A DNA stretch of 64,000 nucleotides from IMG/VR virus record IMGVR_UViG_3300028197_000002; one strand, 5' to 3'. Both the position numbers and the translations under genes were made by a program. Positions 13,852-62,975 of the stretch are shown in pieces; the first letter of the stretch is position 1, and every line of letters begins with the position of its first letter. The notes under the pieces are model-generated. The model had not been told where the DNA came from and ran no database searches. It saw only the letters and a program-made list of their open reading frames with translations. The DNA is from a virus. Its lineage: Duplodnaviria > Caudoviricetes.

Positions 13852-14271
13852 ATGGCCATATCAAAAGGAACAGTAAGAGTTGTAAATGGAACATACCAGC
13901 CGATCAGAAGTTCTGAGATGGAAAGAAGAGTTAGAAGAGGCAATGTCAGAATGGACTCGATAAAAGGAGCAATTCCGCCTCCTTTTGAGTATCGTCAAAC
14001 TGATGATGGCAAAAACACTTTTGAGATGAATATAAGATGTGTATCGAAGGTCCACTTGTTAAAAAGTGGAATAGCGGTTGAAACTGATAATTATGTAAGG
14101 AATGAAAAAACTATTCGAAGTCTTGGAGAAAAAAACATAACTCAACAAATTAAATTAAACGCTTGTCAGTATTCTGGATACGAGGAAGCTTCTAAACTTA
14201 GAAAAAGAATTATTCAAACTCAAAAGTTAAAGAACTTAAATGATCAAGAATTTATTTTTGATATTGAATAA
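13852..14271 (+). CDS. Hypothetical basic protein
   Basis: 139-aa ORF with GGAG RBS. Confidence 0.65.
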   Translation: MAISKGTVRVVNGTYQPIRSSEMERRVRRGNVRMDSIKGAIPPPFEYRQTDDGKNTFEMNIRCVSKVHLLKSGIAVETDNYVRNEKTIRSLGEKNITQQIKLNACQYSGYEEASKLRKRIIQTQKLKNLNDQEFIFDIE

Positions 14272-14429
14272 TTTTTTGGATAATTAATACTTAAATGTTT
14301 AATTTTTCTGTTTGAAATTTATTTATTTTATTTCTGTTTTTGGATAGCGATGTACATTGTAAAAAATACCGCTTCTTATTGGTCTAATTGGAAAAATTAA
14401 TTTAAATTAATTTTTAATATTGATAGATA

Positions 14430-14477
14430 TTATTGTGACAAGGATGTTGCAATAAGGGCAAGGATGCCCGCTTTTTT
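14430..14477 (+). ncRNA. Candidate CsrA/RsmA-binding RNA element (two AGGA-loop hairpins plus U-tract)
   Basis: TTATTGTGACA-AGGA-TGTTGCAATAA (11-bp stem) followed by GGGCA-AGGA-TGCCC and GCTTTTTT; both contain CAAGGATG. Confidence 0.55.
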
Positions 14478-14544
14478 ATAGTGCTTTAAAGGCTGTTTAT
14501 TTATAAAATATTACAGTCTTTTTTATTTGAAACAGGAGGTTGAA

Positions 14545-14769
14545 ATGACAGCATCATCAGTAACAGGCGTGAGCGGTCCAGGAATATCAAATGGCAAATT
14601 TAAGCCTGAGAATAGCTCTTGTAGATATGGTTGCGGTAGCGGCGGAAATTGCATGGAAGAAGAAACTGTTTCTTCAAAAAAGAAAGCTTATTGTTGTTCT
14701 AGTGGAGTTAAAACTTGTTCTTATTTAAAAGTTTTAAGATGTTCTAATTCTAGAATAAAAACTTGTTGA
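14545..14769 (+). CDS. Small Cys/Ser/Gly-rich protein (74 aa, 8 Cys)
   Basis: AGGAGG RBS before ATG 14545. Confidence 0.65.
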   Translation: MTASSVTGVSGPGISNGKFKPENSSCRYGCGSGGNCMEEETVSSKKKAYCCSSGVKTCSYLKVLRCSNSRIKTC

Positions 14770-14774
14770 GGCAC

Positions 14775-14803
14775 TTTACATTTCTTGTTTTCTTTCCTAT
14801 AAT
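14775..14803 (+). promoter_or_regulatory. Promoter TTTACA-N17-TATAAT
   Basis: Read directly upstream of 14918. Confidence 0.65.
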
Positions 14804-14917
14804 TAGGCAGCAACTTTGTTTCTTATTGAAACCCAGTTGGAGAATTTATGATCTAACAAATGTTTCTTTTTGTAAAAAAAATACTTTATTTTTATTTTCT
14901 GATTTGAAAGGGATTTA

Positions 14918-15217
14918 ATGTCGAGTTTTCATGTTGATGCAAGAGTATCTATTAAACTAGAGTATGAGTTGGCTGTTCGTTTAGGCGAGTTTTTACTTCA
15001 GTCAGGCACAGATGACAAGCAGGTTCTTGCTTTGGGCCATAAATTAAATAATTTAGAAGAAGAGGAAGAACAACAACAGCCTGTTCGTTTTTCTAATATT
15101 GTGAATAATTCTTATAAGTACAACAAGGATTGGAATAGCAATGAACATGGCTCTTCTGACGACAACAACGAAGAAAAGCCAAGAAGAATTAACTTAAGAA
15201 GACGAGCTACTGTTTAG
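14918..15217 (+). CDS. Hypothetical protein
   Basis: 99-aa ORF with acidic/Gln-rich middle and Arg-rich end. Confidence 0.65.
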   Translation: MSSFHVDARVSIKLEYELAVRLGEFLLQSGTDDKQVLALGHKLNNLEEEEEQQQPVRFSNIVNNSYKYNKDWNSNEHGSSDDNNEEKPRRINLRRRATV

Positions 15218-15285: not shown

Positions 15286-15317
15286 AATATATTTTTTAAT
15301 TTTCAAAGGAGATTTGA

Positions 15318-15650
15318 ATGAGATTTTTATTAACAGTTGCTTTTTGTGTTTTTCCATTAACAATTTTTGCTCAAGATGAAGTTGTTGAAATTGTAAGTGA
15401 TGAAACTCCAAAGCAAGAAGTTGTAGAGGAAGTTTTGGATGAAAAGCCTATTATTGAGATTTTAGAACCTGTGGATGTAATTCCTCCAAAATGCGAAACA
15501 AATTTCGCAACTTTAAGAAGGGCCACTTGCACTTCAGTGAATTTTGTTGGTAAAGTTGCTTGTACGCCTTTTAAGGTGGTCAGCAAAGTTTTTTGCCATG
15601 CTAGAACAAGAAGAAGTTTTAGTTTTTTTAGACGAAGATGTTGTCGTTAA
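15318..15650 (+). CDS. Small exported protein with Arg/Cys-rich C-terminus
   Basis: Signal peptide MRFLLTVAFCVFPLTIFA; ends RSFSFFRRRCCR. Confidence 0.7.
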   Translation: MRFLLTVAFCVFPLTIFAQDEVVEIVSDETPKQEVVEEVLDEKPIIEILEPVDVIPPKCETNFATLRRATCTSVNFVGKVACTPFKVVSKVFCHARTRRSFSFFRRRCCR

Positions 15651-57432: not shown

Positions 57433-57505
57433 GGGGCGGTAGCTCAATGGTTAGAGCCGCAAACTCATAATTTGTTGGTTGGGGGTTCAAATCCCTCTCG
57501 CCCTA
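57433..57505 (+). tRNA. tRNA with CAT anticodon, most likely Ile2 (lysidine-type); CCA not encoded
   Basis: Full cloverleaf: GGGGCGG/TCGCCCT, GCTC/GAGC, GCAAA-CTCATAA-TTTGT, GGGGG-TTCAAAT-CCCTC, discriminator A. Confidence 0.92.
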
Positions 57506-57563
57506 CTTCTGCTTTTAGAAGAAAGTAGATATTCACCTTTTAATAGAAAGTTGGTTTTTCATA

Positions 57564-62476: not shown

Positions 62477-62704
62477 TTATTTTTTTGATTTTTGTTCACA
62501 GAGCAACAATTCTTCTTGATGTTTCTTTTCTGTTTTAATTTTCTGATCTAACTCAGCTCTAAGAATGACAATTTCTTTATCGGCTTCAACTCCGACTCGC
62601 ACTTTATTCAAATTGTCTATTTTTACGATTGTCAGCTTGATGTCTTCCCGTCCCGGAATTTTAACAATAATTGTTTCATCTTTCTTCCTGCTTAAAACTA
62701 GCAT
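62477..62704 (-). CDS. csrA: Carbon storage regulator CsrA/RsmA
   Basis: MLVLSRKKDETI..VRVGVEADKEIVILRAEL; GGAG RBS. Confidence 0.9.
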   Translation of the reverse strand: MLVLSRKKDETIIVKIPGREDIKLTIVKIDNLNKVRVGVEADKEIVILRAELDQKIKTEKKHQEELLLCEQKSKK

Positions 62705-62975
62705 TTTTTCGCTTCTCCTTTGCTTTTTCCATTTCCTAGTCTAATTCTCTCTATCTAATTCAGGGGGAAATTATTAAATTTCCCATGTAGATATAGTATC
62801 ATTATGAATAAAAATTTTTTCCAAAAAAAAATTAATATAAATTAAATTACACAAGCAAAGTGTTTTTTTACTTTTTTTTGAACTGTTAGCAATTTACCTC
62901 CGTACAGTTTAGAAGACATAACGTAAAATCAATGACGAAATTTAATTTGAATGTAAAAAAAAACAAAAAAATTAT

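Follow-up and report, generated by a model that had tools for sequence, protein, structure and literature searches.

The described systems closest to the element that we report here are the sponge RNAs CsrB/CsrC and RsmX/Y/Z. In these RNAs, A(N)GGA is presented in the loops of hairpins, adjacent stem-loops are spaced for a dimer of CsrA or RsmE, and the 3' end is Rho-independent. Schubert and colleagues are said to have found in 2007 that the optimal site for RsmE is (A/U)CANGGANG(U/A). And Mercante and colleagues reportedly found in 2009 that a CsrA dimer spans two sites at distances of 10 to ~63 nt, and that ~18 nt is about the best distance. CsrA also represses genes through their leaders: glgC, hag, and pgaA each have a high-affinity GGA hairpin in the leader, upstream of the gene, and a GGA in the Shine-Dalgarno sequence (SD). 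We know of no intrinsic terminator whose loop contains a CsrA site. Two other kinds of RNA are similar in some ways. McaS, GadY, Spot 42, and SgrS are mainly Hfq-dependent base-pairing regulators, and their GGA sites are mostly suboptimal. The small RNA EutX/Rli55 is under riboswitch control and uses a dual hairpin to sequester EutV, an ANTAR protein.

The consensus for CsrA from SELEX is RUACARGGAUGU, with ACA and GGA invariant and the GGA in a hairpin loop (PMC4347634). In pgaA, CsrA influences termination (PMC4052769). The targets of ANTAR proteins are two tandem hairpins, next to a terminator, with hexaloops that have A at position 1 and G at position 4 (PMC3369931). Mobile elements can carry their own CsrA: csrA genes are known from phages and plasmids, and the phage genes were first catalogued in 2020 (Sobrero and Valverde, PMC7366521). 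A 2025 study, which describes gp28 of phage PTXU04, states that csrA's role in the life cycle of phages was previously untested, and a role in infection has barely been tested (PMC11879866). In their accessible parts, these two papers cover the protein only and do not name an RNA partner that is encoded by the element.

The window (the whole 64-kb stretch of DNA that we analysed) has a G+C content of ~30% and encodes PhoH, a sigma factor, a Dda-like helicase, an HNH endonuclease, PRPP synthetase, and a large block of sugar-modifying enzymes. (The family scans took in 30 open reading frames (ORFs) of the window, of which 10 were compared to Pfam.) Proteins of the window are found letter for letter on marine metagenome contigs of 259–372 kb, and there are relatives in IMG/VR. 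The source is a marine jumbo phage, as had been recognized in part by an earlier reading of the letters alone (the first-pass annotation), which assigned the DNA to a phage. The phage also has a tRNA-Met (CAT) gene at 57433–57506.

The element lies in the spacer between the genes for a 139-amino-acid and a 74-amino-acid protein (Table 1). Homologues of these two proteins (65–84% identity) led us to four more lineages with the same gene order, namely group B (L036–L039 and L094), group C (L042–L049, L092, L097, and L098), L050, and L041.

The first-pass annotation also reported a csrA gene, and the Pfam match, which is well above the cut-off and on the minus strand, bears this out. In contrast to the Pfam score, the score against the NCBIfam equivalog models is below the cut-off (51 vs. 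73). The phage's CsrA aligns end to end with CsrA from E. coli (1Y00) and RsmA from P. aeruginosa (1VPZ), and the equivalents of L2, L4, R6, and R44 are kept. Its orthologues in the related lineages are 93–95% identical, and the synteny of csrA and PRPP synthetase is retained. CsrA variants are present in the same assemblies as the group C element and in the sample of the 332-kb group B contig, so in groups B and C, csrA and the element co-occur by sample or assembly and not on a single contig. Similar CsrA genes are found on many IMG/VR contigs of 200–530 kb. As for the gene's own leader (62705–62826, minus strand), it has three GGA motifs (UAGGAA, AUGGAA, and AAGGAG at the SD) and an 8-bp hairpin (GGGAAAUU/AAUUUCCC), and group C has the same final 50 nt ahead of the start codon. 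It is possible that csrA regulates itself.

Table 1. Features of the spacer and of the csrA region in the window, and unrelated loci with twin hairpins on other contigs.
Feature	Position	Strand	Description
139-aa ORF	13852–14271	+	Last gene of the upstream co-oriented run
Conserved AT-rich block	14379–14429	+	Conservation island in an otherwise unalignable spacer; TTTTAATAT invariant
24-bp perfect palindrome	14392–14415		AAATTAATTT twice in tandem; its end lies 15 nt before hairpin 1
Hairpin 1	14430–14455	+	Arms 14430–14440 and 14445–14455; 11 pairs including 2 G.U; loop AGGA at 14441–14444; -8.4 kcal/mol
Hairpin 2	14456–14469	+	GGGCA/AGGA/TGCCC; abuts hairpin 1; 5 pairs, of which 4 are G-C; -6.8 kcal/mol
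U tract of first terminator	14470–14477	+	GC, then T6
Hairpin 3 and U tract	14488–14524	+	Terminator-like, stronger than the first; -9.6 kcal/mol; T6
74-aa cysteine-rich ORF	14545–14769	+	Strong SD, AGGAGG at 14535–14540; possible cis target
Phage csrA (75 aa)	62477–62704	-	Pfam PF02599, E = 1.1e-13, 51.3 bits vs. a cut-off of 27
Palindrome copy	62827–62850		122 nt upstream of the csrA start codon; 20/24 match
Twin hairpins, L091	6618–6659		Separate terminator after the pair; tRNA adjoining
Twin hairpins, L093 and L095	L093:6541–6582; L095:7100–7141	L093, minus	Pair at the tip of a ~100-nt long hairpin; GC and T run after the second hairpin
Twin hairpins, L096	3392–3431	minus	Second hairpin over a start codon
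Twin hairpins, L051	7605–7637		Pair enclosed by an outer helix; Chloroflexia MAG with csrA present; the one whole genome that could be checked

At 14430–14477, the first-pass annotation described an 11-bp hairpin and a 5-bp hairpin, both with AGGA loops, followed by GC and T6, with the two GGAs 20 nt apart. The sequence and the predicted folding agree with this exactly. CAAGGATG begins at 14439 and again at 14459, which gives the GGA-to-GGA distance of 20 nt, and RNA folding of 14424–14480 yields exactly hairpins 1 and 2 (-17.3 kcal/mol, z = -3.45; none of 200 shuffled sequences matched this). Hairpin 2 is a G+C-rich stem-loop directly before a U tract, as expected for an intrinsic terminator, and a terminator scan calls hairpin 2 and the T run, with T6 starting two bases past the stem.

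CAAGGATG occurs five times in 64 kb, as compared to 1.33 expected, and two of those five copies are the twin hairpin pair. ACANGGANGT is seen twice in the window, and GGGCAAGGATGCCC is unique in the window even if 3 mismatches are allowed. The first-pass annotation suggested that the contig be scanned for more CARGGATG hairpins; a hairpin-aware scan of the window for adjacent hairpins with A(N)GGA loops found two pairs, versus 0.2 in shuffled sequences, and the pair other than the twin hairpins is weak. We also considered whether the module might encode a small peptide, but it has frames of 3 and 5 codons only, and there are 1- and 11-nt indels between lineages.

Both AGGA loops sit within CAAGGAUG. 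Hairpin 1 holds ACAAGGAUGU, which matches the final ten positions of the SELEX consensus at 10 of 10. Hairpin 2 holds GCAAGGAUGC, which retains the GGA and the CA..UG, with the first A replaced by G. Furthermore, we take both hairpins to fit the optimum for RsmE that was described above. So, at the level of the sequence, the match to the CsrA consensus that the first-pass annotation claimed holds up for both hairpins. We think it quite probable, from the sequence, that RNA with these twin hairpins is bound in the manner of CsrA targets, in whatever form the RNA occurs.

The first-pass annotation viewed the element as a candidate Csr/Rsm small RNA. The module is not a member of the CsrB/RsmZ family, and if it works like a Csr/Rsm decoy, that would be by analogy. 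It shares the GGA-containing loops, the spacing of the stem-loops, and the terminator at the 3' end with the sponge RNAs, and like them it is predicted to sequester CsrA. But it has just two sites, as compared to 9–25 in the classical sponges (PMC11882849); it is ~50 nt instead of 110–370 nt; it has neither a GacA/UvrY box nor a match in Rfam; and it is encoded by a phage. McaS, GadY, Spot 42, and SgrS are also short, have one to four GGA sites, and can bind CsrA (PMC11882849), but our module consists almost entirely of two consensus sites, with no evident seed region. As in the leaders of glgC, hag, and pgaA, there is a GGA hairpin upstream and a GGA in the SD of the next gene, but two intrinsic terminators separate the sites from the SD. 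Finally, EutX/Rli55 is similar in being a minimal decoy for a dimeric RNA-binding protein, with two tandem hairpins and a link to a terminator, but the protein family and the loop code are different, and riboswitch control is a feature of EutX.

Conservation across the lineages points to selection on the module as plus-strand RNA. In the four-lineage alignment (A2), none of the columns in the first 100 nt of the spacer are invariant (0%). In contrast, conservation from ~14379 to 14484 is 0.5–0.8, which is equal to or above that of the coding flanks, and it drops over hairpin 3. The block is near-invariant in the window, L036, L042/L043, L050, and L041. The first-pass annotation stated that if the stems were conserved in relatives and the loops were not, then this would be an ordinary terminator. 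We found the opposite: both loops are invariant across all of the lineages found. More precisely, there are six sequence variants of the block, and both AGGA loops, the whole of hairpin 2, and GCTTTT are the same in all of them.

The changes in hairpin 1 tend to preserve pairing. One G.U pair is replaced by G-C in two variants and by A-U in another; a U.G pair is replaced by U-A; and one U-A pair is replaced by G-C, with both sides substituted. Overall, 96% of the cells (pairs by variants) are paired. The top eight pairs are never broken, and the unpaired cells are confined to the ninth and outermost pair that we counted, in two variants. With six related sequences, a shuffle control for this pairing was not significant (58 of 500), so the pattern is consistent with an RNA helix but falls short of proof. 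Thus, of the covariation that the first-pass annotation proposed to look for, the pair-preserving changes are present but their statistical significance is not. The pair-preserving changes, and the G.U pairs, which are workable in plus-strand RNA alone, point to selection on plus-strand RNA.

We propose that the plus-strand RNA of 14430–14477 is a selected protein-binding module, in which two stem-loops would present CA-AGGA-UG with the GGA in the loop. Because the sites are 20 nt apart, one CsrA dimer could clamp both of them. And because the second stem-loop and the U tract would end the transcript, the module would be released as a short stable 3' end. The released end would be either a ~50-nt RNA that starts from the AT-rich block or the terminal part of the mRNA that comes from the upstream gene run. 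Either form would titrate one CsrA dimer, from the phage or from the host, per molecule, and so would be a minimal decoy in the manner of CsrB/RsmZ. We give this reading, a trans-acting CsrA decoy that is released at the first terminator, a probability of about 0.5. Within it, we infer the binding of CsrA, the accumulation of a short RNA, and the action in trans. One consideration counts against a decoy: two sites can bind just one dimer, and weak antagonism has been reported for small RNAs that have one or two GGA motifs (PMC11882849).

Three features of the spacer that bear on how the module is transcribed were absent from the first-pass annotation: the conserved AT-rich block, hairpin 3, and the lack of a conserved promoter, in any lineage, between the terminators and the SD of the 74-aa ORF. 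The neighbouring small (early) genes carry conserved promoters of the form TTTAC(A/T)-N17-TATAAT (for instance, at 14775–14803), but we did not find this kind of promoter before hairpin 1 in any lineage. Since there is no sigma-70-type promoter of the neighbours' kind before hairpin 1, a separate gene for the module is unproven. The AT-rich block contains several -10-like hexamers, but none of them has a consistent -35 across lineages. The conserved upstream words of the block are not repeated elsewhere in the window, and 14272–14430 contains no match to the GacA/UvrY box TGTAAG-N6-CTTACA with up to 3 mismatches. The block may be a promoter, an operator, or, if it belongs to a 3'UTR, an AU-rich site of processing. 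In L041, the conserved block begins ~15 nt past the stop codon of the upstream gene, so the mRNA of the upstream gene run must reach the hairpins. The module could be carried as a ~50-nt RNA from the AT-rich block, as the 3' end (perhaps processed) of the upstream mRNA, or as a leader, and these possibilities are not exclusive. Among the listed sequencing runs that match the stretch (marine, from at least 13 studies), none is an RNA run.

The AT-rich block includes a perfect palindrome (Table 1), and group C (L042) has the same one, letter for letter. An 11-nt insertion, or one helical turn, interrupts the palindrome that precedes the hairpins in group B, L050, and L041. Within the 64 kb of the window, the only other match to the palindrome with up to 4 mismatches is upstream of csrA. 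By itself this copy is weak, as 21% of shuffled windows yield some match with up to 4 mismatches; what carries weight is its position, together with the copy in group C, which lies at the orthologous place upstream of csrA and matches at 23 of 24 positions (L099, 2859–2882; none of 300 shuffles had a match within 2 mismatches). The similarity between the csrA-upstream and hairpin-upstream regions is restricted to the palindrome. At the level of the sequence, this suggests that the palindrome is an operator or promoter element that is common to csrA and the module, and it points to a regulator that can be tested. If so, the protein and the RNA would be under common transcriptional control.

A bolder idea is that the phage has a self-contained Csr circuit, with its CsrA and a one-dimer decoy RNA behind the same 24-bp palindromic operator. 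We regard this as possible but doubtful. The first-pass annotation had already paired the RNA with csrA; the palindrome that is shared with the region upstream of csrA favours such a cognate pair, but other jumbo phages with csrA lack an equivalent of the RNA (see below). If the circuit is real, then during infection the phage would be able to turn CsrA-type control of translation on and off, independent of the Gac/Csr small RNA system of the host.

We also considered that the module might act in cis, as a CsrA-responsive leader or attenuator of the 74-aa gene, on mRNA that reads through from the upstream gene run. CsrA would stabilise the weak terminator hairpin 2, or would bridge to the GGA in the SD, and this would set the amount of the cysteine-rich protein. 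The interval from the terminators to the SD lacks a conserved promoter, whereas the next genes have TTTAC(A/T)-N17-TATAAT. So some transcripts must read through both terminators to express the 74-aa ORF, and in those transcripts the module is also a leader. The order of the hairpins, hairpin 3, the SD, and the ORF is kept in all lineages, the SD contains a GGA, and the unrelated locus L096 uses the same twin design as a leader over a start codon. And in L041 (1949–1995), hairpins 2 and 3 could pair with each other, through the 3' arm of the former (AUGCCC) and the 5' arm of the latter (GGGCAU). However, this alternative pairing is missing in the other lineages, and two successive terminators with U tracts stand between the sites and the SD. 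As for bridging, 74 nt separate the GGA in hairpin 2 from that in the SD, which is beyond the range of 10 to ~63 nt given above, and the small hairpin at the SD is not conserved. We think that a leader is somewhat unlikely to be the explanation.

If CsrA has no role, then the hairpins could be ordinary tandem terminators of the upstream run, with AGGA loops that have no ligand and with conservation that is due to termination or to recent descent. Their position after a run of co-oriented genes fits this, as does the call of hairpin 2 and its U tract by the terminator scan. But hairpin 3, in the same spacer, drifts freely: its sequence varies by lineage (GAGGCUGU/ACAGCCUC in L036 and AAGGGC/GCCCUU in L041), one G.U pair is replaced by G-C in near-identical relatives, and a hairpin and a U run are always kept. 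The loops of hairpins 1 and 2 are invariant instead, so the constraint on their sequence exceeds what termination needs. Hairpin 1 lacks a U tract and is not needed for termination, and both loops match a protein-binding consensus over 8–10 nt. Recent descent cannot explain the conserved island because the surrounding spacer is unalignable. We consider plain terminators improbable. Another dimeric RNA-binding protein that reads tandem loops, such as an ANTAR-type protein or an unknown phage protein, is a further candidate. If the closing A-U pair is open, both loops become AAGGAU hexaloops with A1 and G4, although this fit is formal only. An ANTAR target requires a second hairpin that overlaps the 5' half of the terminator, but here hairpin 2 is itself the terminator stem, and there is no overlap with hairpin 3. 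Also, the invariant positions go far beyond what ANTAR proteins need and spell out the CsrA consensus, and CsrA is the protein that the phage is known to encode; this alternative is very unlikely. Finally, the conserved element could be DNA, with two 8-bp direct repeats (the copies of CAAGGATG, 20 bp or two helical turns apart) and an adjoining palindrome as a signal for a protein, for recombination, or for replication. But a site in duplex DNA would not explain the arms of the inverted repeats, the G.U pairs that work in the plus strand only, or the substitutions that preserve pairing, and the U tract argues for RNA, so we see hardly any chance that this is correct.

We return to the decoy and to what it would mean. 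The first-pass annotation knew of no phage-encoded cognate Csr small RNA. Our literature search, which left many subscription papers outside its reach, likewise found no report of a phage-encoded CsrA-binding (Csr-type) RNA, and no RNA partner of CsrA that is encoded by a mobile element is described in the papers that were found. If CsrA does bind the module, this would be the smallest natural decoy for CsrA and the first to be carried by a phage, and both halves of a global post-transcriptional switch would be present in one virus. In addition, the module could be used as a defined 50-nt reagent for titrating CsrA. And as the element is abundant in marine metagenomes (at least 13 studies), it would bear on how large marine phages reprogram translation in their hosts.

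Hairpin 3, at 14488–14521 and with a U tract of its own, ends ~10 bases before the SD of the 74-aa ORF. The homologues of the 74-aa protein are 68–84% identical and retain the cysteine pattern, and we found no match for it in Pfam or PHROG. It has eight cysteines in a conserved pattern, and its N-terminus, MTASSVTGVS, is strongly conserved. In L041, where hairpins 2 and 3 can pair with each other, the alternative pairing would give three mutually exclusive hairpins, which resembles a classical attenuator.

Farther downstream (14775–14917), TTTACA-N17-TATAAT is conserved in four lineages, with a leader of ~110 nt ahead of the gene at 14918. This leader has a conserved TTGGAGAA and a mini-ORF of 2–3 codons (ATG ATC TAA here, and GTG TAA in L036 and L041). 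The SD of the gene at 15318 (GGAG) is in the loop of a 6-bp hairpin (15302–15318) whose 3' arm reaches the start codon. We considered that hairpins with the SD in the loop might form a regulon of the phage's CsrA, but the hairpin at the gene at 15318 is kept in group C and absent from group B, so this idea is not supported.

Rfam had nothing at the gathering score for the window, and nothing relevant at E up to 10 for 14250–14600. No public phage record had a DNA match to the stretch. Exact and gapped patterns for the motif gave no match in viral contigs, and distant phages that share a Glf-like gene (L001–L020) do not have the neighbourhood of the module. A covariance model (R1) was compared to 39 sources and matched the window itself, plus a weak match at L051. 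In five whole or partial records of jumbo phages that carry csrA, the same model found no homologue (the best match had E = 0.007). This best match is a GAGGCAAGGATGCCTC terminator in G003, and we do not count it as a homologue, as the GGAs upstream of it are base-paired within a long stem. A hairpin-aware scan for twin sites across ~1.1 Mb of csrA-carrying phages found 0–6 per record, versus 0.7–2.5 after shuffling, and none of these have a terminator; in the csrA-carrying jumbo phages, twin sites are only about twice as frequent as the shuffles would predict. Since other jumbo phages with csrA lack a homologue, csrA and the module occur together only within this lineage. The first-pass annotation proposed to look for such co-occurrence across phage genomes in general, and, with five records that lack a homologue, there is none.

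Two sites on csrA-carrying contigs were noticed along the way. On a 373-kb contig with csrA (L087:1522–1537, or G003:177621–177636), a terminator with the sequence GAGGCA-AGGA-UGCCUC comes after a promoter-like site, TTGACA-N17-AAGAAT, and the GGAs that precede it lie paired within a longer stem. On the contig of another large phage (L054:12093–12139, minus strand), two copies of CAAGGATG are 20 nt apart, inside an open frame and 2 kb from csrA. The pair in L054 is either due to chance or a CsrA site in a coding region.

We also scanned metagenome and genome contigs with the pattern ACAAGGATGT, a gap of 7–13, and GGCAAGGATGCC. This returned the phage family and also unrelated loci, with 43–62% G+C, in which both motifs cap hairpins (Table 1). 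The stems at the unrelated loci have up to 9 pairs, which is longer than the pattern demands, and a hairpin with ACAAGGAUGU is followed by a hairpin with GGCAAGGAUGCC. As these unrelated loci differ in G+C and have the same twin design, they are independent recurrences of it, in the form of apparent small RNAs and of a leader. They could represent a class of two-site CsrA RNAs that has not yet been recognised. If the phage does have a self-contained circuit, then L091, L093/L095, and L051 would be the cellular members of this "mini-Csr" class of RNAs. L093 contains two inverted copies, as well as a weak match, on the opposite strand, to Ysr224 from Rfam.
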